From Acetohalobium arabaticum DSM 5501 (GTDB lineage Bacteria > Bacillota > Halanaerobiia > Halobacteroidales > Acetohalobiaceae), in contig NC_014378.1 in assembly GCF_000144695.1 (NCBI RefSeq), forward strand, positions 1,335,833 to 1,367,832: DNA of 32,000 nucleotides, written 5' to 3'. The translations under genes and the position numbers were made by a program. Below, one piece after another: positions 1,797 through 21,335 of the stretch (the first letter of the stretch is position 1; each line of letters opens with the position of its first letter). The notes under the pieces were generated by a model that was not told where the DNA came from, searched no databases, and saw nothing but the letters and a program-made list of their open reading frames with translations.

Positions 1797-3968
1797 CTAC
1801 AGATCATAAATATCGGCAAATTCTACATCTATACGGTCAATAATCTCTTGAGAATTATATCTATCATTGGTCTGAAAACTGCTTCCTTCAGCCAATTTCC
1901 TATCTGACAGTTCTATAATAAATTCACTTCCTACACCTTCCTCACTCTCTACACTTATCTGGCCATTATGGAGTTCAACAATTGATTTTACAATAGATAA
2001 TCCGATTCCAGTTCCTTCATTACTTCTAGTAAACGATTTATCGGCTTGACCAAATCGTTTAAAGATTAGCTCCTGCTTTTCTTGAGAAATACCAATGCCC
2101 GTATCTTTAACGGAAATTAACACTTTGCCTTCTTCAGTATAAATATTAACTGATACTTTATCACCAATATCTGTAAACTTCACAGCATTAGAAAGTAAAT
2201 TTAAGATAACTCGTTCAATATTAAAAGGATCACAGGCTATTATCTTTTCCTCAATTTCAGAATCAAATTCAAATTCCAATTCCTTATATTCAATATGCTC
2301 TGCCACCGAACAAGCAACTTTTCTAACCAGACTTACTATATTACAATTCTCTAATTCAAGTTCAAAAGAACCAGAATCCATCTTAGTAATATCAATTAAA
2401 TTATTGGCTAATCTGAGGAGCCGACGACCATTCTGTTTAATGATTGTTGTATATTTTCCCATCTTACTGCTCTGTTCCGGCTCTAATTTCTTTTGATACA
2501 TCTCTAACATCTGTTGAGCAGAAAAAATCAAATTTAACGGCGTTCTGAATTCATGTGAGATATTAGCAAAAAACTCCATTTTTAGTTTATTGTAGGCTAC
2601 TTTTTCTTTTAATGATTCCACTTCTGTAATATCTATTCCCGTACTTAAAATTTTATTCATCTGACTCTGTTCATCCTTCAGTACAGCATTATGCCATAAA
2701 ATTTTTCTTTCCTCTCCAGATTTAGTGATAATCCTATTCTTATCATTAATTATTTCTCCCTCTAGTAAGGAATTAATTATTTGCTTAGTCTCCGCAGAAT
2801 CTTCTTCTTTTACAAAGTTTTCGGTCCAATCATGTCCTAATACTTCTTCTTCCTTCACTCCTAAAATTTCACAGCCTTTTCTATTGAGTAATTCCACCTT
2901 ACCAGTTCGATCTAAATTAACAACAATTACTTCTGTGATATCAAAATACTTTTGAAGCTTATCTCTTTCTTCTTTAACTTTCTCTTCAGCTTCTTTGCGG
3001 GCAGTAATATCTTCAACAAAACCCAGCAACCGATTTTCAGATGCTTTTACCGCATTGATATTAGCATGAAATTTACTGCCATCCTTTTTAAGAAGCATAA
3101 TTTCAAGACTTAATTCACCAACTTCTAACAGCTGAACTAAATGTCTTTTAGCTTTCTGCCTATCTACAGTCACATCTTCAATAGACATATTCAAAAGTTC
3201 TTCTTTAGAATAACCGCTAAGTTCACAAGCAGCTTCATTTACTTCAATATATTCCCCTCGACTATTAATTACAAATACTCCATAGGGGGCATTATCAATA
3301 TAACTTCTAAACTTTGCTTCACTCTCCTTAAGTGTCTGTTCCGTTTTCTTTCTCTCAGTTATATCACGGTCAAATGATACGAAAATTGGTTCTTCTAAAT
3401 CATCAATATAAGTAGTACTCACCTCAACATCTATAACTTCACCATTCTTACAGCTACATTTGGTTTCAAAACGATCCTGTTCATCTGTCATGATTCTTTC
3501 CATATGATCCTTCACTTCTTCTTTATTTTTAGTAATATCGATATCATCTATAGTCATCTCCAATAATTCTTCCCGTGAATAACCTATCATCTCTTGATAA
3601 CTTTTATTAGCCTCAATAATTTCTCCTTCAGTATTTAAAATTAAAAAACCGTCCATAGTTGTATATAATATTTTATTAAGTTTATCCTTTTCCATAGTTA
3701 ATTCTAAACTTTGTTCTTTCAATCTTTCCCTAAGATAGGATTGATACTTAAATAAAGCTCCAAAGACTAACCCCTGACTTAACAGAAAAGCTGCCACAAT
3801 CCCGCCCTTTAAATGGCCAAAATAAGCTCCTAATCCTACTAAAATCATACAACTAATCCCCTGTAGACTCAGTGACAGATAAGGAGCAATAAAAAATATA
3901 CTTAGACCAAAGATAATTACAAGGTACTTTAATTTACTGATATCTGATTCTACATTCAACTTCTTCAT
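1797..3968 (-). CDS. Membrane-anchored multi-PAS sensor histidine kinase (orphan, no response regulator nearby)
   Basis: 723 aa. N-terminal hydrophobic helices, several PAS-like repeats (GYSREELL, GYSKEELL), H-box FFANISHEFRTPLN, and HATPase N/G boxes (LLSNAVKFT, DTGIGI, GTGIGLSIV). Stop codon is TAG (plus cta 1797-1799). Confidence 0.9.
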   Translation of the reverse strand: MKKLNVESDISKLKYLVIIFGLSIFFIAPYLSLSLQGISCMILVGLGAYFGHLKGGIVAAFLLSQGLVFGALFKYQSYLRERLKEQSLELTMEKDKLNKILYTTMDGFLILNTEGEIIEANKSYQEMIGYSREELLEMTIDDIDITKNKEEVKDHMERIMTDEQDRFETKCSCKNGEVIDVEVSTTYIDDLEEPIFVSFDRDITERKKTEQTLKESEAKFRSYIDNAPYGVFVINSRGEYIEVNEAACELSGYSKEELLNMSIEDVTVDRQKAKRHLVQLLEVGELSLEIMLLKKDGSKFHANINAVKASENRLLGFVEDITARKEAEEKVKEERDKLQKYFDITEVIVVNLDRTGKVELLNRKGCEILGVKEEEVLGHDWTENFVKEEDSAETKQIINSLLEGEIINDKNRIITKSGEERKILWHNAVLKDEQSQMNKILSTGIDITEVESLKEKVAYNKLKMEFFANISHEFRTPLNLIFSAQQMLEMYQKKLEPEQSSKMGKYTTIIKQNGRRLLRLANNLIDITKMDSGSFELELENCNIVSLVRKVACSVAEHIEYKELEFEFDSEIEEKIIACDPFNIERVILNLLSNAVKFTDIGDKVSVNIYTEEGKVLISVKDTGIGISQEKQELIFKRFGQADKSFTRSNEGTGIGLSIVKSIVELHNGQISVESEEGVGSEFIIELSDRKLAEGSSFQTNDRYNSQEIIDRIDVEFADIYDL

Positions 3969-4130
3969 TTATCTGATTATCATTCCCTCATCTAATTTAT
4001 TTTTCATTTAATAACCTTAATATTAAATTTTCTTCTAAATATAACAAATTTCCCGTATTAAAGGTTAAATTAATAATAACAGAAGCATTTAATATCCTAA
4101 ATCTTCTTCAACTATGATAACTTTAATTCT

Positions 4131-4327
4131 GTAGGTACATGGTTTTCGGAGCTCAATACCATTCACCACTAGCAAACTAATCCAATCGATTCTACCTTGC
4201 TAACTTTCTGTCTACGCTTAAAAGATTACGTTACTTAACCTCTCCAAGACTCGATACAGAGCTGGTGGCTAACCTTTACCCTGATGGGATTTACACCCAC
4301 TAGAACATACGTCCTGCCAGGACGCAC
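4131..4327 (-). mobile_element. Mini group II intron relic (element C): 5' GUGCG end plus domain-I-like start, ends in ...GUACCUAC
   Basis: Minus strand reads GUGCGUCCUGGCAGGACGUAUGUUCUAGUGGGUGUAAAUCCCAUCAGGG from 4327. This is the same architecture as the 5' ends of elements A and B (GGUG-NAA-GUCC hairpin about 30 nt in). No domain V or ORF. Its 3' end resembles the ...CCCUAC ends of A and B. Confidence 0.45.
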
Positions 4328-4347
4328 CGCTAAGCCTCTGTTAGGCG
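4328..4347 (-). other. Small bulged hairpin immediately 5' of element C (related copy at 8405-8422)
   Basis: Plus cgctaa-gcctctg-ttaGgcg. The copy at 8405-8422 is gctaac-cctat-gttaTgc. Both have a 6-bp stem with a one-base bulge on the same side. Confidence 0.4.
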
Positions 4348-4389
4348 ATCGTAGGGACCTATTCAAAAGCCAAAATTAATTCAAAACAA

Positions 4390-5403
4390 TTAAGACTTTG
4401 CTTTATCTATAAACCATTTTTTAAATTTTCCATATTCATCAGAATTATAAATTTTACAAGCATCAAAAGTATAAAAATATCCATATCTTGAAAAATAAAT
4501 ACCTGCTTTATTAATAGAAAATTTATTTTGAAAATCAATTAAAGTTAAATATCCAACTAATTGTCGCCACTGTTTAGCAGTCAAGTTTAAATTTTTAGTT
4601 GTCTTTACATCAATTAAAGTATCATTAATTATCAAATCAGCATCTGCTCCATTTACTAATTTCGATCCCTTACCAAATGTAGGGTTCAGGTATACTTTAT
4701 TTGCTAGATTATTTTGTTCTGGAATCGCATGATATAAATTTTTTAAATCCTCAATATATTCTTTTTTGTATTCACCTAAAGTTTCATTGAACTTTCTTCC
4801 TCGGAGATAATCATCTATTTTAGCTAAATCAATAATAGCTTTAATTACTTCTTCATTCATTTTCCCATCTTTTACATATTTATTGTATACTTTTTCTGCA
4901 TTAAAAATTGCATTAAATGTTCTTCTAAATTGCTTTTCAATTTTAGATGAACAGGTTAATTCTCCACCCTCCATAATGTATTTAACTATTTTATCAAAAT
5001 CAATCTTATCATATTCTATATTATCATATATAATAAATCCACCATGATTTTCTACTCCTGGTACTTCTTCGAATCCTTCCATATCTGGTATTACTATACC
5101 CATTTCTTTCAAAAAATTTTGCGGGAATAAAATATCTATATTCGAAATTTTATTAGATAGAAGGTACAATGAAGTATGAGCAATCCAATGAGAATCCTTT
5201 GCATTATCTTTATATTCATGCTTTAAATAAAACCTAAACAAATAATCAAAAGCAGTTCCGATTAACATATAATCTTTACCACTATATGCTTTTGGCGGTT
5301 TTACTTTCATTTCTATATTACTTTGCGAAAAAGAAGGTTTATTAAAAGTTTTATCAATATTTTTTCTTATGTCAGCTTTTTTTATAAAACTAGTTAAAGA
5401 CAT
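4390..5403 (-). CDS. PD-(D/E)XK (RecB/Cas4-like fold) nuclease-family hypothetical protein, 337 aa (ORF-Y)
   Basis: I place the start at ATG 5401-5403, preceded by AAGGGGGTGA 8 nt upstream. The 41 extra codons in the ORF track translate intron domain V RNA. Motifs: GADADLIINDTLIDVKTTK (D...D-x-K) and QWRQLVGY (QxxxY). No Cys cluster. TAA stop. Confidence 0.6.
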   Translation of the reverse strand: MSLTSFIKKADIRKNIDKTFNKPSFSQSNIEMKVKPPKAYSGKDYMLIGTAFDYLFRFYLKHEYKDNAKDSHWIAHTSLYLLSNKISNIDILFPQNFLKEMGIVIPDMEGFEEVPGVENHGGFIIYDNIEYDKIDFDKIVKYIMEGGELTCSSKIEKQFRRTFNAIFNAEKVYNKYVKDGKMNEEVIKAIIDLAKIDDYLRGRKFNETLGEYKKEYIEDLKNLYHAIPEQNNLANKVYLNPTFGKGSKLVNGADADLIINDTLIDVKTTKNLNLTAKQWRQLVGYLTLIDFQNKFSINKAGIYFSRYGYFYTFDACKIYNSDEYGKFKKWFIDKAKS

Positions 5404-5503
5404 TATTTTCTCACCCCCTTCGTGTCCTTTAAAATATTTATTTAGGTCCCTATGTGTAGAGCAGAAAACAAGTTTGATATTATCTCCCCAGCCTCCCCTC
5501 GCC

Positions 5504-6289
5504 AATTCCGTAAGTAGAGTTTTCATCTATACGGCTTTCCATTGCACTTCTTCCTGTAGCCTTCAGTTAATATAGACATTAACTTTTACTCTCTCAGGTA
5601 TAGTTTCCTCCGAAGTTGTTAAGCTTTTACAATGGTGTAGTTAGCCTGTTTGGCATTCACTCACTCTTACCTCCCTTAGAAACTTGTACAAAGTAGAGTT
5701 CCTTTCCTCCAATATGGTTCTGTTGTCCATATCATCATCAGTACTATGAACTCATCCGATTCCCTTTCTGCAGTTTGTACTTTCACCATCACAGTTTATG
5801 TACTCACTCTTTACAGAATTCTCTGTGCAGACTAGGGTCTCACCAGTTCCTGATCATTACTTTCACTACATGTCGCTTCCTATACACCGAGAGGTTCTTC
5901 AATGCTGCTTACTCAGTTCTTCACACCTTCTATAGCCTTCTTCCTTACACGTAAGAATCAGCTCCTCTTTGGTCCCTCTTCGTCGAGGGGGAACTGACGA
6001 TGCAGCAGAATTCGCTTTATGCTACAACATAGCCAGCATACAGACCAATACTGGCTATGGGAGTAACTTATTGAGCAGAAAGATAGTATTATTGCTCTAA
6101 GTTACAAGGCTAGGAGCAAGGATTTATAATCCTGCGGATCTGTAGTTTTAATCGCCACACTTTGGTGACTTTGTCACAGTTACAAAATAGGAATTTCTCC
6201 CTACCAAGTCTGTCAACTACCGAGCTACTGAGTTATTACTCGGATTGGACTTTCACCAACTAGCAATGATAGGATTACCTGGTCGCGCC
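5504..6289 (-). mobile_element. Group II intron derivative B: domains I-V with the RT ORF deleted
   Basis: Collinear similarity to intron A, for example GGAACUGGUGAGACCCUA and GGAUGAGUUCAUAGUA versus GGAACUGGAGAAACCCUA and GGAUGGGUUCAUAGUA. It retains the RT ribosome-binding region (GGGAGGUAAGAGUGAGUGAAUG), then only 9 codons. Domain-V-like AAGCCGUAUAGAUGAAAACUCUACUUACGGAAUU lies at 5504-5537, with mismatches at the base of the helix. The 5' end is near 6288/6289 (GGCGCGACC). The 3' limit is uncertain (see findings). Confidence 0.6.
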
Positions 6290-6293
6290 GTTT

Positions 6294-8318
6294 GTAGGGT
6301 CGAAGTCTGGTGCCTTAACTTAGGTTGATGTTTGTGTTCTCCGTTTGCTCACCCTTTCGTCTGTGAGTGCCACAATATCTCATCCTTATCACATTTCCAA
6401 ACCCCGCCTCATCAAACCGTACGTACGGTTCTCCCGTATACGGCTTTCCTATTTAACTTCTTCTTAAATCTTATAAGTTTAAGCTGGTTTAACTTTCGTT
6501 ATAACGAGCTAATTTATAATTATCAAATAAACCTATCTCATTATATAACCAATCGCTACTCCATCTCTTCCAGCCATATCCCTTTTTACCTCGTTGCTTC
6601 ATGAGATACCTTCTTACTTTATTTTCTACATAATCCTTTACATAAGAAAAGCAGTTCTCTGAATTACCTATTGAAAAGTAATTTACCCAACCTCTTAATA
6701 TAGTGTTTAATTCTGTTATCATTAGCTCAAAGATTCCTGTTGTTCTATGCCTTTTGATTACTTCCTTTATTTTCTGCAACAATGCTGTTCTTTTCTTCAT
6801 TTGAGGTACCGTTAGAACACCCCATTTTCCACTGAAAGTCTTTCGCCTTTTCAAAGTAAATCCTAGAAAACTTATTCTTTCTCCTTTTTCTAGATTTACT
6901 ACTTTAGTCTTTTCCTTGTTTACTTTTACCTTTATTTTATCTAGTTCTTCTTTCAGTCTTTGTATCACTTTTGAAAGTAACCAATTCATACTTGGATGGC
7001 TTGATACTGCTATTACGATATCATCTGCAAAACGAGCATATTCTAGTTCTGTATACTTACCTTTACTTTTTGTTACCTCTTTTGCTCTCTCAAGCATTCT
7101 ATCTACTTCATTTAAATATAAATTAGCAAATAGTGGTGAAATTACTCCACCTTGTGGTACACCTTCTTTTCCACTAGCCTTAAGCATCAGTTTAATCAAA
7201 TGCATTACTTCTTTATCGATTACTCTTTTAGCAATCTTAGCTAACAATATATGATGCTTTACTGTATCGAAGTAGCTCGATAAGTCAAGATCTATCACTT
7301 TTCTTTTTCCACTTACTATTGCTTTTTCTATTTTCTTTACTGCTTGATGAGCTGTTCGTTTTGGTCGATATCCATAAGAACTTTCTTGAAAATCTGCTTC
7401 AAATATTGGCTCTAATATTAACTTTAATGCTCCCTGTACTATTCTATCTTTGATGGTTGGTATACCTAATACCCTTACTTTTCCATTTCCTTTAGGTATC
7501 TCTTGTTTTCGGTTTTCCTGCGGCTTGTATGTCTCATTTACCAGTTCTTCTCTTATCTTTTTAAGATATTTCAATACTCCTATCCCTTCAATATCTTCAA
7601 AAGTTATTCCATCTACACCTGAAGAACCATTCTTCTTTCTTGCAATTCTATAAGCTTTTAGCAACGTATCTAGCTTACATACATGAACATACAATCCCCA
7701 GAATTTATGAGATTCTTCCTTCTTAGATTTAAGATATATTCTCTTCCTCAAGTCTTGTAAACTTATGGGCGCTTTTATCATTTCACCCTTACCTCCTGTC
7801 TTGTCCGAGAAATTATCAATAGTAGGGTCCCTTTGCTATATGAAGTTATATTTACTTCGTAATCTTGGCTACTATGAACCCATCCGCCACCCTCTCCTTT
7901 TTCAATTCATTTCCTGGTTCTCAGTTATAGAATCTACATTTCTCAAGTAATTTTTCACAGGAAGGAATAGGGTTTCTCCAGTTCCAGACATATCCTTATA
8001 TACATACCACCGCTAATACTCCGTTGGTGTACATAAATGTATCAGTCAATTTTCATTCATGCATTCTGTCTTCACTCAGACGTTAAAAGTTCGACCACCA
8101 AATTTACCCCTTTCGAAGCTACTATGCGTTCACTGGTGTTATGGTCTGCATACTTGCTCGATACCCTATAGGTACCTTTGTTAATGGACTTCAATGTCCA
8201 AAGTTTCCTATCAACATTGCCATTCAGCTATAGAGTTTTGACTTTTACTCTAATAGGACTTACACCCATTGGATATGTCCAGCTTCGCTGGACATACAAC
8301 GTCCCTAGGGTTCGCGAC
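6294..8318 (-). mobile_element. Full-length group II intron A with intron-encoded RT/maturase
   Basis: - RT ORF lies in domain IV.
- Canonical domain V AAGCCGUAUACGGGAGAACCGUACGUACGGUUU sits at 6414-6446, directly after the ORF.
- A domain VI-like helix forms between GGGGUUUGG and CCAGACUUC, with a bulged A 7 nt before ...CCCUAC ending at 6294.
- The 5' end is near 8318 (GUCGCGAACC, a non-consensus GUGYG), so boundaries are good to only a few nt. Confidence 0.8.
6489..7781 (-). CDS. Group II intron reverse transcriptase/maturase (no endonuclease domain)
   Basis: 430 aa. RT blocks: GVDGITFEDI, VRVLGIPTIKDRIVQ, SYGYRPKRTAHQA, IDLDLSSYFDTV, GVPQGGVISPLFANLYL, and RFADDIVI (FADD rather than YADD). 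Maturase X motif RGWVNYF. The protein ends soon after, so there is no HNH domain. SD GGAGGTAAGGGTGAA precedes the ATG. Confidence 0.92.
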   Translation of the reverse strand: MIKAPISLQDLRKRIYLKSKKEESHKFWGLYVHVCKLDTLLKAYRIARKKNGSSGVDGITFEDIEGIGVLKYLKKIREELVNETYKPQENRKQEIPKGNGKVRVLGIPTIKDRIVQGALKLILEPIFEADFQESSYGYRPKRTAHQAVKKIEKAIVSGKRKVIDLDLSSYFDTVKHHILLAKIAKRVIDKEVMHLIKLMLKASGKEGVPQGGVISPLFANLYLNEVDRMLERAKEVTKSKGKYTELEYARFADDIVIAVSSHPSMNWLLSKVIQRLKEELDKIKVKVNKEKTKVVNLEKGERISFLGFTLKRRKTFSGKWGVLTVPQMKKRTALLQKIKEVIKRHRTTGIFELMITELNTILRGWVNYFSIGNSENCFSYVKDYVENKVRRYLMKQRGKKGYGWKRWSSDWLYNEIGLFDNYKLARYNES

Positions 8319-8435
8319 ATCTAGCTCAACCCTCCTATAACTTGTCCATTTTCTAAAACTTTCATATGTAATCCCTAACTTTGCTTATTCTCCTAGCCTA
8401 GATGTTGCTAACCCTATGTTATGCGATGGACTAAT

Positions 8436-9572
8436 TTAAGTTTTATTTAAATCTCCAATTGAAATGACCATATCTTTATTAATTAATAATTTGTTATTAG
8501 CTATGCTCTCTAAACTTTTTACTTTAGGAATCTTTTTATTATTATAGTGAGTATAATATTTAATTTCACCAATTTCTTTATTTGAGTTATCAAACTCAAA
8601 ATCATATATCCCTTCATCATTACAACAAGTAAAAAATAATCTTTCTCTATTTTTGCTTACAAAACAATCCACAAAATTTTGTATAAAAGAAGGAGCATAA
8701 GCTACAAAATGTTTGTCTTCAGATTTAATATAGCCATATAGTGGTTCCATAACATATGAATACCAAATCAAATCATCGATTTCTAATTTTTTATGCAATT
8801 CATTTTCATATTTTGGTTTACCATTATAGTATTTCAAATTTACAAATCCATTTCTTTTCTTACCATTCATCTCATGCCACTTATAATGAGCAAACTTTTT
8901 ATCTTCTAAGTCTACAATTCTCTTTTTAAGAAATCCATACTTTTTAGCTGTTTTTTCAATAGCTTTACCAATTTGAGTATTAAGTTTAAAGTTTGTTTTA
9001 ACTGTAGGAGAATATGAACTTGATAATGAATTATAATCTTGATACTCTTCTACTTTGTATAATTTATCCTTTTTCATACTATATATATTTAATTTTCTAA
9101 TCCAAGAACCGGTACCAGAACCATGTTCAATAAAAACAATTTCTTCTTCTCCATCATTATCAATATCCTCAACATTTAAACTCTCTATTAGAAATGAAGA
9201 CTTTTTCTGCCAAACAGAAGTATAATTTTCACCCAATTTTCTTAAAATGCAAATTTTATGATCATATCCATTATTACTTTTATTAACTTGAGTAAATACT
9301 GCAATAAACTCATTTAAATTGATATTTTTATACGGTACAGCTTTTAAAATTTTAGATGATAATATAGAATATGCTATATTTTTTGCTTCTTTATCCTTAA
9401 TTTGTGAATTGCAAATGAGATTTTTATTGAATAAAAAAAGCCTTAATTTATGTTTACATTTATTTAGTTTCCCATAGATTTTACCTAAATTAGATACAAT
9501 AAAATCCAAAATTATTCCTAAGATATTAAAGCACCTCCACAAATTAGTCTTTCGCATAACTTTAATCTTCAC
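8436..9572 (-). CDS. Hypothetical protein with N-terminal hydrophobic anchor and one FG-GAP/VCBS-like loop (ORF-X)
   Basis: Long open frame of 378 aa with a GTG start at 9572 (alternative ATG at 9557). Hydrophobic segment LWRCFNILGIILDFIVSNL. VEDIDNDGEEEIVFIEHGSG resembles a calcium-binding FG-GAP loop. I recognise no other family. Lys/Asn-rich, even more AT-rich than its neighbours. Confidence 0.5.
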   Translation of the reverse strand: MKIKVMRKTNLWRCFNILGIILDFIVSNLGKIYGKLNKCKHKLRLFLFNKNLICNSQIKDKEAKNIAYSILSSKILKAVPYKNINLNEFIAVFTQVNKSNNGYDHKICILRKLGENYTSVWQKKSSFLIESLNVEDIDNDGEEEIVFIEHGSGTGSWIRKLNIYSMKKDKLYKVEEYQDYNSLSSSYSPTVKTNFKLNTQIGKAIEKTAKKYGFLKKRIVDLEDKKFAHYKWHEMNGKKRNGFVNLKYYNGKPKYENELHKKLEIDDLIWYSYVMEPLYGYIKSEDKHFVAYAPSFIQNFVDCFVSKNRERLFFTCCNDEGIYDFEFDNSNKEIGEIKYYTHYNNKKIPKVKSLESIANNKLLINKDMVISIGDLNKT

Positions 9573-9768: not shown

Positions 9769-10245
9769 AAGCCTCCCCACAGTAATAAACATTACGAAGT
9801 CCTCCAGCAGAATAAAGTGAAAATCCCCGATAACTTCGACTCCTTCATACTTGATGGTATCGAAATCTATGCCGTCCCTGACTTAATCTATAAGAATCAA
9901 GCCGGCAGAACCATCATCGTCGACTGGAAGACCGGCAATCCCAAATTAAAAGAGGATATGAAGCAGCTAGAGATCTATGCCTACTACTGTTTTCATAATT
10001 TCAATTCCAGCCAGCCGATTACCGCCCGGCTGGAATATCTCAAAACAGGTAAAAAACATGAGAAAGTGGTATTTCCAGAAGAGAAAGAACGAATTGCAAG
10101 TGAGATATTAGACAGCGCAGCCAGAATGAAGGCCTATCTAGCCGACAAAAAAGAGAATATCCCACTACCAAAAGAAAAATTTATCCCGCAGTGTCAAGAA
10201 AGAAAGTATACTAACTGCAAATTCCGAGGATTCTGTCCTGGCTAA
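9769..10245 (+). pseudogene. 5'-truncated Cas4/RecB-family PD-(D/E)XK nuclease with C-terminal Cys cluster
   Basis: The frame is open only from 9769 (after TAA 9766-9768). The ORF track starts it at GTG 9817. It retains motif II-III (AVPDLIYKNQAGRTIIVDWKTG), QLEIYAYY, and C-x8-C-x5-C (CQERKYTNCKFRGFC). The N-terminal part normally carrying the first Cys and motif I is missing. Confidence 0.55.
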
Positions 10246-17904: not shown

Positions 17905-18702
17905 TTACACATCCAATTCTCCATTTTGAACAGCCTGAATATAATTACTACAGTGTTTATCATTTCCTAATAAGGTATTTGCAGTAGTTATTAAAGCCAT
18001 AATCTTTGGATCTAATGGATCTATAATAGCACTATCCATGCCTTTAGCCATGGCCAAAGTTACAAAGGTTCTATTAAGCAATTTTCTCTGCGGCAGTCCA
18101 TGAGAAATATTACTTAATCCACAAGTAATATGTACATCTTCATACTCACTCGTAATTTCATCGATTGCCTCAAGAATATGCTGTCCTACCTCTTGGTCGG
18201 TTCCAATAGGCTGAATAATCGGATCAACATAAATATCATCCATATCCATTCCAGCATCAGTTAAATCTTCAATTAACTTCTTTCCCACTCTAGTTCTATC
18301 TTCAATACCATCAGGCATTCCACCATCATCCATTACCAAGGCAACCACTTGAGCATCATGTTTTTGAATTATTTCTAGTGTCTCGTTAAATCTTTCTTCT
18401 TCAGCAGTAATAGAATTGACTAAAGCCTTTCCATCATGAGCAGCTAAGGCTCTATCCATAGCTTTAGGATCAGGAGTATCTATACATAATGGTACATCAA
18501 CTACCTCTTGTACCGTATTTACTAACCATTCTAATGCTTCTTGCTCTTCATCAATTAGAGTTCCGCAGTTAACATCAATATAATCTGCTCCTGCTTCTTC
18601 CTGTTTTTTAGCTAAATCTTGAATAAACTCTGTATCTCTATCCTTAACAGCCGGCTCAATTCCCTCTCTACTTGTATTAATTAATTCACCAACAATTATC
18701 AT
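17905..18702 (-). CDS. Methylcorrinoid:tetrahydrofolate methyltransferase (pterin-binding, MeTr/AcsE/MtgA-like)
   Basis: 265 aa. It is collinear, as I recall it, with Moorella MeTr: IIGE-IN start, D-NCG, PLCIDT, NSI, GLSN-S, NRTF, D-AI-D. SD GGAGGG. Confidence 0.85.
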   Translation of the reverse strand: MIIVGELINTSREGIEPAVKDRDTEFIQDLAKKQEEAGADYIDVNCGTLIDEEQEALEWLVNTVQEVVDVPLCIDTPDPKAMDRALAAHDGKALVNSITAEEERFNETLEIIQKHDAQVVALVMDDGGMPDGIEDRTRVGKKLIEDLTDAGMDMDDIYVDPIIQPIGTDQEVGQHILEAIDEITSEYEDVHITCGLSNISHGLPQRKLLNRTFVTLAMAKGMDSAIIDPLDPKIMALITTANTLLGNDKHCSNYIQAVQNGELDV

Positions 18703-18802: not shown

Positions 18803-19447
18803 TTAATCTGCTAATTCTTTAATTTTATTAACTGCTTCATTTGCATCTTCTGCATAACCATCTGCTCCGATTTTTTCTGCAAATCTTTTTGTAACCGGTC
18901 CACCACCAACTACTAAGTCAAACTCATCACGTAAGTTTTCTTCCTCTAAAATCTCTAATAATTCTTCATTTGCTCCCATAGTAGTAGTTAATAATGCACT
19001 AGTTCCTATAATATCAGCATCAACTTCTTTAGCCTTAGTAATAAAATCTTCAATAGGAACATCTGTTCCTAAATCAAAAACTTCAATTCCATTTGCCTCT
19101 AAAATTGAAGCTACAATTCCTTTTCCAATATCATGAACATCACCTTGTACTGTACCTAAAACAATCTTGATACTTTCTCCAGCTGCTGCATCTTCTTTTG
19201 CTGCAGCTTCTTGTAAAATTCCACTAGCTTTTTTCATTGCTTCAGCACAGCCCATTAGCTGAGGTAAGAATAACTCACCTCTATCAAATAATCTACCAAC
19301 TTCCTTAATTCCTGCAGTATAACCTTTCTCTATCATCTTTAACGGATCAATTCCTTCATCAAGTGCAGTTTGAGCAATCTCCTCAGCTTTATCTACGTCA
19401 GCATCACAAATAGCTTCAGCCGCTTTTTCAAAAAGTTCATCACTCAT
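18803..19447 (-). CDS. mtbC: Methylamine-specific corrinoid protein (B12-binding domain)
   Basis: 214 aa. N-terminal helical cap plus Rossmann B12 domain with DxHxxG motif (GDVHDIGKGIV). SD GGAGG 8 nt upstream. It starts 22 nt after the MtbB stop. Confidence 0.85.
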   Translation of the reverse strand: MSDELFEKAAEAICDADVDKAEEIAQTALDEGIDPLKMIEKGYTAGIKEVGRLFDRGELFLPQLMGCAEAMKKASGILQEAAAKEDAAAGESIKIVLGTVQGDVHDIGKGIVASILEANGIEVFDLGTDVPIEDFITKAKEVDADIIGTSALLTTTMGANEELLEILEEENLRDEFDLVVGGGPVTKRFAEKIGADGYAEDANEAVNKIKELAD

Positions 19448-19468: not shown

Positions 19469-20845
19469 TTAAGATGTTTTATTTTTAAACTTCTCTACAG
19501 AATTAATTCTAATATCAAGCAATTCAGAAATGTTAAACTTAGCTTCTACGCCTTTAGCCTCTCCAGCTTCAGGCTGAACTCGCCCGATATTCAATTCATT
19601 TCGTACCTCATCCATAATCACAGGATCAGTCAATTCTCCTACTTCAACCCCTAATTTATCAGCAACATATTCTTTCGCTTCATCTAGACGCATATTTTCG
19701 GACATTTGCATGCGCGCTACCAGGTCTCCGGCAGTACGTACTCCGCCCATGCCCGAAGCTAATGCGTGACTGATGACCATTCCATTAGGGTCACCTACAC
19801 CTACCTACAACCCATCTTGTTTACCAATCTCAGCCAGAGCAGCAGAAGCTCTACTTAAAGAATCTGCTGGCGGAGTTTCAACTATTGGTACACCGCCTAC
19901 ACCCATACCTACATTTGCATGTACAGGAATATCAGCCGCTTCAGCACAAGCTTTCATCATAGTTACAGTTCTACCTATATTCCAAGGAATAGTCTCACTA
20001 CTATTGATGTTAACTACCGGGCCAAAGACATCAACTCCAGCCTCTTCAGCTAACTTCACCTGCTCATGCGGATATAATCCTGCTAAACCAACTCCATTAT
20101 ACTCTAAATCTCCATGCATTCCTAAAACAAATTCTCCAGCCATTCCCATCTCAATACTGATATTAGGATACTTTTCCTTTAATTCTTCCGTTGCTTTCAA
20201 TGTAGCCAAGAAATCAGGTTCCCCTGCTGAACCAGTTGTATCAAAATTAATTCCATCTGCTCCAGCTTCATACATCTTACTTCCTACAAAAACCATATCT
20301 TTAATTGCATGTTCCATCATACCTTCATAAGCTTCTTGCGCTTCTTTAACTTTCCCCTTTGGCAACAATTCTGCTGGATTAGGAAATGCCCCATCTGGTT
20401 GACTGTATAATGATAGATTAGGCATTGCTCCGTAATATAGAGGTAAGACCGTACTCAACAGAGCCTGTTCCATCTCTATTTGCTCTTCAGCTACAATTGG
20501 CTTTACGGGCTTAAAACTGTAATCAATATGAGCCAATTCTGCAGTATCAGAGCAAAAAACTCTTTCATAAATCTGCAAATCAGGAATTCTACCGATTGAA
20601 ACAGCCAAACGCTTTAATTTTACTGATCCTTCATCAAAAGTTAAAACTAACTCATTTCCCGTTTCAACACTTACAAATTTACTCGGTCTTGTATAAATAT
20701 CTGTTAATTTTTCTATTTCCTCCTCAGGAAGGGAATCAACCTCTGCTCGGTCAACAGCATCTTCAATTCCTCTTTCTATATCTGCTCTAATTTCATCTTC
20801 AGTCATTTCTATTGTCGAGCCGTCTCCTAGCCTTGTCTGTACCAT
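19469..20845 (-). CDS. mtbB: Dimethylamine:corrinoid methyltransferase with in-frame UAG (predicted pyrrolysine) at 19805-19807
   Basis: - Track ORFs 19805..20866 and 19469..19780 are in the same frame.
- They are separated only by TAG plus 8 open codons (VGVGDPNG).
- The joined product from ATG 20843-20845 (AAGGAG SD 8 nt upstream) is 458 codons with UAG at codon 347.
- Remembered MtbB motifs lie on both sides: HIDYSFKPVKP, GMGVGG before; GDLVARM, AKEYVADKLGV, LLDIRINS after. Confidence 0.85.
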
Positions 20846-21335
20846 ATTTTTCACTCCTTTATTCAATTAAATTTTAATTTAAATTCAGTCCCACACTTAA
20901 CCAGAAATTAAATCTTCCATTGTCAGATTTTACTTATCACCTCCTTTTCATATTCTTTGCTATTTTGTTAAAATATTAATAATTTTATAAAGATTCTGAT
21001 GTCTCTGTAAAGGATAGATATATCGCATCTCTTTTCAAAAATTAAAATTATAAAAATTATATTAAATGAAGATAATGGTATTTGATAGATTACAATAGGT
21101 ATGAAAGGTAGAAATAAATGATATATTATTCCTTAATAAACTTATATCATTGTATTAGGTTGTATTATAATATTTCCATATTAACTATTTAATCCCTTTT
21201 ATTCTTATATTGTAATTAGTTATAACATTCATAAGTTATAAATTATTTAGACAATATAAAAGCTTGTCCATCTCTTAATCTCCTATTTATATAAGCAAAT
21301 AATTATATGATTTCAATAAAATATTAGTTATTTTT

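Follow-up and report, generated by a model that had tools for sequence, protein, structure and literature searches.

The locus described here raises the question of why three group II intron elements should lie in the same orientation within about 4.2 kb of a bacterial chromosome. It belongs to a stretch of 32,000 nucleotides (nt) of Acetohalobium arabaticum DSM 5501 (contig NC_014378.1, positions 1,335,833 to 1,367,832), which is referred to as the window and in which positions are counted; features are on the minus strand unless stated. A first-pass annotation, made from the sequence alone, described a head-to-tail array of three minus-strand elements (A, B and C), attributed it to repeated homing into or next to earlier copies, and saw in it a graveyard with one live element. 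Rfam covariance models matched all three elements above the gathering score, B and C as well as A, so detection was not confined to A. The graveyard also stands, with A intact and perfectly matched to its exon, B decayed and C a stump. The head-to-tail arrangement was borne out for A and B, which are 5 nt apart, and not for B and C, which are separated by a 1.1-kb cassette gene. Homing into or next to earlier copies was seen in relatives of the wider clade and not at this locus, where the target appears to be an attC-like hairpin. Overall, our analysis suggests that the array is likely the product of independent retrohoming of three group II lineages into attC-like hairpins at two adjacent cassette boundaries; the organising principle of the array would be the target, rather than the introns.

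Element A proved to be a complete group II intron, 2004 nt in length (8297-6294), that starts with GUAUG and ends with CGACCCUAC. Its domain I was matched by the Rfam model D1D4-4 at 8271-8134 (97.5 bits, above the gathering score), and its domains V and VI (DV and DVI) were matched by RF00029 at 6448-6361 (40.9 bits, cut-off 40). In the predicted fold DV (6445-6415) is canonical, with the AGC triad and the 2-nt bulge, and the bulged A of DVI at 6300 lies 7 nt from the 3' end, within the 7-8 nt of a branch A. Domain IV contains an intact open reading frame (ORF) for a reverse transcriptase (RT)/maturase of 430 amino acids (aa) at 7781-6489, similar in length to relatives of 429 aa. The protein was matched by the Pfam families RVT_1 (134 bits) and GIIM (58.6 bits) and by TIGR04416 (381 bits, cut-off 300), and the Pfam profile search found no endonuclease domain in it. 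A and B both fall in the D1D4-4 subfamily of Rfam; the RNA outside the ORF amounts to about 710 nt. The RT is single-copy: no further identical copies were found in A. arabaticum beyond this locus. Close copies of A occupy different loci in relatives, and A probably retains its capacity for splicing and mobility.

The ends of A were placed at 8297 and 6294 on the basis of alignment with relatives, covariation between the exon-binding site 1 (EBS1) and the exon, and a tandem junction in Halobacteroides halobius. Seventeen relatives start with GUG(Y)GUCCAGCGAAGGCUGG and finish with CGACCCUAC, and from 8297 onwards A (GUAUGUCCAGCGAAGCUGGACAUAUCCAAUGGGUG) aligns without gaps to their start GUG(Y)GUCCAGCGAAGGCUGGUGUGUUCAGCAGGAG; GUAUG is a variant of GUGYG common to the H. 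halobius copies, and the end is ...CUAC. In 16 of these 17 relatives covariation links EBS1 to the final six nt of the 5' exon (EBS1/exon pairs AACCGU/ACGGUU, AUCCGU/ACGGAU, AAUCUA/UAGAUU, UGUCUC/GAGACA, CGUCGU/ACGACG and ACGAAA/UUUCGU), and locus L002 fits in part only. EBS1 of A, AACGUC at 8084-8079 by alignment with relatives, forms six of six Watson-Crick pairs with the intron-binding site 1 (IBS1) GACGUU at 8303-8298; EBS1 is AACGUC in all close A-type copies and AACGUU in Natroniella. The perfect tandem of H. halobius, with the junction ...CGACCCTAC|GTATGTCC..., directly shows both ends of the A-type mobile unit. Furthermore, a multi-copy intron family of a proteobacterial metagenome-assembled genome (MAG) terminates with ...CUCGACCCUAC in unrelated flanks, and a Natroniella contig with 85% identity over 1909 nt of A breaks off one base past the 3'-end motif; the Natroniella copy carries a compensatory change in DV. 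The first nucleotide after the intron is A in every close A-type copy and G in the tandem, a pattern that would fit a uridine at EBS3 in A-type introns. The completeness of A, its RT/maturase, DV, bulged A and 3' end at 6294 had thus been read correctly by the first-pass annotation. Its 5' end at 8318 was ruled out by the alignment with relatives (EBS-like complements to the exon implied by 8318 were uninformative), and the 21 nt GUCGCGAACCCUAGGGACGUU at the supposed start are 5' exon with IBS1. The atypical 5' end that A and B had been thought to share is lost with it: GUCGCG is target sequence, and its resemblance to the mutated GUGCG of B is a coincidence.

Two further observations concern A itself. 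Compared with the Halonatronum copy, domain VI (6413-6306) is longer by an insertion of about 70 nt at its apex. The insertion is highly conserved with Natroniella and Sporohalobacter salinus, where it exceeds the ORF in conservation, and this suggests a structured add-on. Two Logan assemblies of the A. arabaticum locus (L082 and L083), built independently from short reads, break within at most 1 nt of the 3' end of A (6294-6295), in agreement with its placement. The breaks hint at further copies of this terminus in the genome, of which ORF-less derivatives would be one source, or else at a culture that is mixed at the A|B junction.

Comparison of the sequences flanking A-type copies revealed a common landing site. 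The 21 nt preceding A recur 5' of every close A-type copy and at one empty site, and the similarity of the 5' flanks reaches about 135 nt upstream. Seven such hairpin sites were found in three genomes, six occupied (one in the window, four in H. halobius and one in S. salinus) and one empty; the four H. halobius sites hold five A-type copies, two of them in tandem. The hairpin flanks A-type sites regardless of any other intron nearby. Its elements follow the order R'' (CACCTAAC), L'' (AGCAGCTTAGCGAC), L' (GTCGCGAAGCTGCG), GGAC and R' (GTT^AGGTG). When the seven sites were reconstituted, 87.8% of the cells in 20 predicted pairs were paired, whereas slid partners gave 53% at most; compensatory, two-sided changes were found in seven of the 20 pairs, and none of 500 shuffles reached the observed covariation score. 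The variable 6 nt of L' (CCCUAG, UCCCAG, GCUGCG and UCUGCG) covary with L''. In the window the part of this site 5' of A, attC-like site 1, occupies 8298-8428, as defined by covariance model R1, covariation and alignments. It comprises R'' (CGCAUAAC, 8425-8418), L'' (8417-8404), L' (GUCGCGAACCCUAG, 8318-8305) followed by the spacer GGAC, and the GUU of R' (8300-8298), the end of IBS1 of A. The rest of R' lies after the intron as AAACG (6293-6289), which serves as 3' exon of A (IBS3 = A) and as the last nt of the 5' exon of B, so that the box reads GTT^AAACG. Model R1 scored 110.9 bits at 8428-8286.

The R''/R' boxes fit the RYYYAAC/GTTRRRY pattern of the integron attC site (PMC7923331), as in CACCTAAC...GTT^AGGTG of S. 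salinus and CGCATAAC...GTT^AAACG of the window, with R'' complementary to R'. The L''/L' helix and the length of about 135 nt, within the range of 57-141 nt, agree with the same architecture. Rfam gave no match on the landing pad, a permissive threshold returning noise only. Model R1 also found a copy in Selenihalanaerobacter shriftii. Two ORFs separate it from an integron-integrase-like gene upstream, whose best family is integron integrase and which lies beside a homolog of the second cassette gene described below. A split integron-integrase-like gene lies beside the H. halobius array (L085 619-1355), and the integrase-like proteins pass NF040815 (242 bits, cut-off 220). In the loci of relatives the element follows unrelated small ORFs. 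From these features we infer that the hairpin of about 135 nt is an integron attC-like site.

The H. halobius array deserves description in its own right. All four attC-like copies detectable in CP003359 (contiguous L085 2986-6907; L084 1346-1890, 2986-4946 and 6795-7347) hold A-type introns. In this 16-kb array two full copies form a perfect tandem, a third full copy stands alone, and the other two copies have internal deletions and no ORF. Its cassette-like genes include Fic/MazE and GrpB.

In A. arabaticum the hairpins lie in what may be called a small two-cassette island (9572-4100) that resembles a CALIN (cluster of attC sites lacking integron integrase). Its cassettes are best explained as an ORF of 378 aa and an ORF of 337 aa with a PD-(D/E)XK-like motif (ORF337), each followed by an attC-like hairpin of about 135 nt. 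The 378-aa ORF (8436-9572, from the ORF list) precedes site 1, which begins 8 nt past its stop codon; the Pfam search gave no significant family for this protein. The second cassette (4390-5455) consists of a leader and ORF337 (5403-4390), lies outside any intron, and is followed by site 2. Downstream of element C a histidine-kinase gene starts at 3968.

Element B lies on the other side of the AAACG spacer. It is a group II intron of 833 nt (6288-5456), decayed and without an ORF, with a 5' GCGCG and a 3' CUGCUCUAC, and its domain I was matched by RF02003 (D1D4-4) at 6262-6130 (50.6 bits, cut-off 49). Clade consensus sets its 5' end at 6288 (GCGCGACCAGG...), as a GUGCG whose U2 has become C; the first-pass start at 6289 and the spacer AAAC are therefore each shifted by one nt. 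The collinearity of B with A, first annotated for domains I to III, holds through domains I to IV: B aligned with 17 relatives through D1-D4a, and a D4 remnant retains the Shine-Dalgarno site and a stub of nine codons (5656-5627). The damage to its DV was confirmed too. The DV-like hairpin (5536-5506) retains the AGC triad, but AA has taken the place of UU opposite it; the base shows A.A and G.A, and the two basal pairs are broken. No Rfam DV match was found in B even at E <= 1. The next 50 nt form a DVI-like segment (GAG...CUC-UAC) that ends at 5456. G stands at the position of the branch A, the bulged A is absent, and the stability of the region does not exceed that of shuffles (z = -0.5). 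With its GCGCG start and damaged core, B is probably dead, at best assisted in trans by the maturase of A.

The exon contacts of B point to the same hairpin. Its EBS1 loop is ACGUGUA (5952-5946), of which CGUGUA can form five of six pairs with the flank UAAACG. Removal of A and of 6288-5456 yields GTT-AAACG-ACATAGG, which agrees with the conserved cassette start GTT-ANNNGACAT of other sites. A and B belong to different lineages; over 47 nt of DV they are only about 79% identical. The idea that B and C are recent copies of A was also tried and discarded, BLAST having returned this DV region and short collinear seeds. In the fetched Halanaerobiales loci no B-type relatives were found beyond a B-like start of 12 nt (GTGCGACCAGCC), located 8 nt 3' of one H. 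halobius A-type copy (L084 d2).

Element C occupies the second attC-like site. It starts with GUGCG at 4327, as first annotated, and comprises a 5' part of domain I of another group II subfamily (4327-4102), matched by RF02005 (D1D4-6) at 4293-4102 (66.1 bits, above the gathering score). Recognisable similarity fades at about 4135-4102, leaving a stump to about 4100. Neither DV nor DVI of C was found, including in a permissive Rfam rescan. The first-pass end at 4131 does not hold, since the Rfam alignment continues through this position and DV/DVI are absent; GUACCUAC is no intron end. The 23 nt before C had been taken for a hairpin. As a local terminator-like structure this segment folds weakly (-5 kcal/mol, z = -1.0), and it is half of a longer hairpin: the R''-L'' half of site 2 (CGCCUAACAGAGGCUUAGCG, 4347-4328), interrupted by C right after L''. 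Over its first 86 nt C shares 88% identity with a C-like start in Halonatronum saccharophilum, where the junction GCTTAGCG|GTGCG is identical (L086 8150-8166|GTGCG). In S. salinus the same site is uninterrupted and reads GCTTAGCG|ACATCC (L087 5659-5675|ACATCC). The rest of C and of site 2 has presumably been deleted, and C appears inert.

The Halonatronum locus (L086, KI912097.1, 2773-8257) is itself another dense intron array. At 2848 the DV-DVI of a different intron ends, directly against an A-type copy that lacks its 5' part and extends to 4891; further DV-DVI regions follow at 6457-6541 and 6671-6756, then a D1 at 6845-6974 and the C-like start at 8167.

A, B and C are all in the sense orientation to the cassette ORFs, and the following order of events may be proposed. 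B would have come first, with its insertion following GUUAAACG on the 3' margin of R' in site 1, and would later have lost its ORF and decayed. A would have followed, 5 nt upstream of B at GUU^A, guided by the pairing of EBS1 with GACGUU and with A as IBS3. C would have entered site 2 after the L'' box, before the deletion of its remainder and of the site. The arrival of B before A is slightly favoured by the U of the B IBS1, which sits across the insertion point of A, and by the decay of B. As the RT of A has no endonuclease domain, priming presumably draws on nascent strands of the replication fork, following the model established for endonuclease-less group II introns (reviewed in PMC4424553).

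Several results weigh against retrohoming into attC-like sites, or against parts of it. A profile search found no integrase in the 32-kb window, and the match of R1 at site 1 is the only complete copy of the hairpin there. The integrase-like proteins of relatives score 251 bits with TIGR02249, under the cut-off of 265. The empty S. salinus copy lies directly 5' of an IS91-family transposase gene and may belong to another mobile element. EBS2 and EBS3 of A were sought and not located. In a comparison with the Protein Data Bank, the RT of A was slightly nearer to class IIC RTs (1e-50) than to T.el4h or LtrA, a difference too slight for class assignment. The 3' end of B at 5456 was drawn from a weak DVI and a restored flank, with no other B copies for comparison, and the arrival of B before A hangs on one extra base pair and on the decay of B.

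It was then considered whether introns home into or beside resident intron copies, by tandem re-integration at a retained 5' exon or by twintron formation, and for the window this appears unlikely. The behaviour is common among relatives whose RT is 54-63% identical to that of A: 22 of 52 distinct 5' junctions lie right after a complete DV of another intron (..CGUACGGUU|GUGUG), near 2485-2491 in most, and the host DVI (UGAUGAGGGG...) resumes after the 3' end of the inserted intron (loci L002, L006, L009-L013, L015-L017, L020, L037, L039-L042, L045, L050-L052 and L067). Nesting at the DV/DVI junction is, as these sequences indicate, a clade-wide habit. A Rhodothermales MAG (L041, OZ253559, 1-4588) contains three ORF-less introns of 888 nt in perfect head-to-tail tandem, with junctions ...CGCCGACCCTAC|GTGCGCC at 827|828 and 1714|1715, and a full-length intron (2490-4478) nested in the third unit after domain V. 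Tandem integration, in which IBS1/2 of the 5' exon survive and EBS3(U) forms a wobble pair with G, has been shown experimentally for a IIB intron (PMC12584367), and both the Rhodothermales units and the two full A-type copies of H. halobius (c1|c2) have its zero-nt junction and a G as +1. In the window, by contrast, A and B are of different lineages and 5 nt apart, with IBS1 sites that overlap but are distinct, and IBS1 and IBS3 of A lie entirely in attC-like sequence, 5 nt outside B. The five other A-type sites have no B-type intron, the 12-nt B-like start downstream of one of them (L084 d2) apart, and C is 1.1 kb from B in a separate site. Twintrons were found in relatives (L006, L011, L016 and L041) and not in the window, where A ends 5 nt before B and where the Rfam scan and alignment revealed no intron sequence upstream of A. 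No description of the DV/DVI nesting of this clade or of the Rhodothermales tandems was found in the papers searched.

A further observation from this RT clade concerns proteobacterial MAGs (L028, L031, L032, L034 and L070; CAVYRH and CAWJKT), in which introns are inserted in the loop of a conserved palindrome. The flanks of these copies (2488-4428) read TTGTCCACGACG|intron|GGGACCTGTCGTGGACAA, a hairpin-type target.

Other mobile elements are the targets of many bacterial introns. The landing pad could be the terminal hairpin of an IS91-family (rolling-circle) transposon or a repeat of the REP (repetitive extragenic palindromic) or MITE (miniature inverted-repeat transposable element) kind, an explanation that we consider quite unlikely. 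The one empty copy (L087 5653-5797) lies directly 5' of the transposase gene (5848-7017; NF033538, 393 bits), and its L' box CGCGAAGC has a second pairing partner in a downstream GCTTCGCG. Against this, R1 matched a second copy after the same gene (L087 7242-7390), which places the transposase gene between two sites like a cassette, and the remaining six sites have no such transposase. The fit of the boxes to RYYYAAC/GTTRRRY, the complementarity of R'' to R' and the integron-integrase-like genes adjacent in two genomes also favour attC-like sites. At the empty copy the A-type and C-type intron sites are both vacant, and the +1 nucleotide is G instead of A.

The first-pass annotation had extended B to 4351, and with it ORF337 into the intron. 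ORF337 shows 100% identity to a hypothetical protein of A. arabaticum, and its family is widespread as a stand-alone gene. The homology of S. shriftii to the second cassette covers 5439-4392 only and ends at the stop codon (71% identity in aa and 79% in nt); intron sequence is absent around the S. shriftii gene, which has the integron-integrase-like neighbour. On these limits, this context and the stand-alone family, ORF337 is an independent cassette gene, separate from B, and the extension of B to 4351 was ruled out. The GGUCCCUAC motif at 4359-4351 is preceded by no DV/DVI, and CCCTAC occurs five times per strand in the window; an intron 3' end is not supported here, and the motif belongs to the 3' untranslated region of the second cassette, just upstream of site 2. 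That B is a 1.9-kb intron (6289-4351) in which ORF337, a homing-endonuclease-like passenger, was inserted in DVI in place of the RT is extremely improbable: the motif at 4359-4351, the PD-(D/E)XK-like motif and a longest ATG that overlaps the DV-like hairpin of B agree with it, whereas ORF337 has its own Shine-Dalgarno site and ATG (5418-5401), its homolog stands free of introns, and excision of 6288-5456, up to the DVI-like end, restores the conserved cassette start.

Retrohoming into attC-like hairpins resembles systems that are known already: group II introns that exploit attC-type hairpins, and clustered or ORF-less intron remnants. Group IIC-attC introns are of class C and home to the bottom strand of attC, antisense to the cassettes, at TTGT/T of R'' (PMC3001079, PMC7923331). 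Like the window elements, these introns, for example S.ma.I2 of Serratia marcescens, pile up in cassette arrays and CALINs (PMC3001079, PMC7923331). A and B differ in that they lie on the top strand, in sense, at or just after GTT^RRRY of R', and C lies after L''; in strand and site none of the three agrees with group IIC-attC introns. A and B also have a large domain I (Rfam D1D4-4) and a 6-bp EBS1-IBS1 pairing.

A closer likeness is offered by the sense-oriented IIB introns beside attC hairpins in integrons and CALINs of halophiles, UHB.I2 and H.ha.F1/F2 (Sonbol & Siam 2021, PMC7923331). These are also non-IIC, some of them truncated, and lie just 3' of attC-like hairpins in sense. No exon conservation was found there for UHB.I2, and the paper names neither Acetohalobium, Halobacteroides nor any Halanaerob- name. 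The family of the window differs by its conserved target, its EBS1-IBS1 match and its presence in three genomes, with three lineages at three positions. The nested introns of Methanosarcina acetivorans (Dai & Zimmerly 2003), in the account given by PMC4424553, likewise form clusters of ORF-containing and ORF-less introns that leave the host gene uninterrupted and act as a 'perpetual homing site'. The nesting of A relatives after domain V of other introns is a comparable trait. According to that account the Methanosarcina introns home into intron ORFs, whereas the window elements are juxtaposed and share a hairpin that is not intron.

The main value of the present case is a clear base-pairing rule for targeting of the attC top strand, by introns that may travel with cassettes. 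If the attC reading is true, a well-defined case that recurs in three genomes would enlarge the small literature on non-IIC introns in integrons, and sense introns could be carried along at the 5' edge of cassettes, a point of relevance to cassette expression and to the co-evolution of retroelements and integrons. A and its relatives, with EBS1 AACGUC, perfect tandems and ORF-less derivatives, are possible material for studies of structured-DNA homing.

A wider proposal is put forward tentatively. The Halanaerobiales may harbour an endonuclease-less, IIB-like lineage specialised on the attC top strand of a chromosomal-integron family, with EBS1 pairing to the spacer/R' junction (GACGUU^R). The insertion lies 2 nt past the integrase crossover (G^TT), and on this ground the intron would be the first element of the downstream cassette and would be moved by IntI. 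IntI would then shuffle the intron with its cassette and couple retrohoming to integron recombination. The clade habit of insertion at the 3' base of DV suggests that the 3' foot of a hairpin was the ancestral target, later re-used on attC hairpins.

Two minor observations were made outside the array. On the plus strand at 9817-10245, an ORF of 142 aa matches only the C-terminal half of a PDDEXK_1/Cas4-like profile (profile positions 121-247) and abuts a histidine-kinase gene of the opposite strand; it is probably what remains of a gene at the border of the cassette island. At 19807-19708 on the minus strand, a PYLIS_2 (mtbB) element (75.9 bits) coincides with the in-frame stop codon of a gene for dimethylamine methyltransferase (Dimeth_Pyl, 570 bits). 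This gene is followed by a corrinoid (B12-binding) protein gene and a pterin-binding methyltransferase gene, and the cluster (ORFs 19805-20866, 18803-19447 and 17905-18702, minus strand) is a pyrrolysine-dependent methylamine operon in a bacterium. The PYLIS/mtbB match agrees with the identity of A. arabaticum, an organism that uses pyrrolysine.

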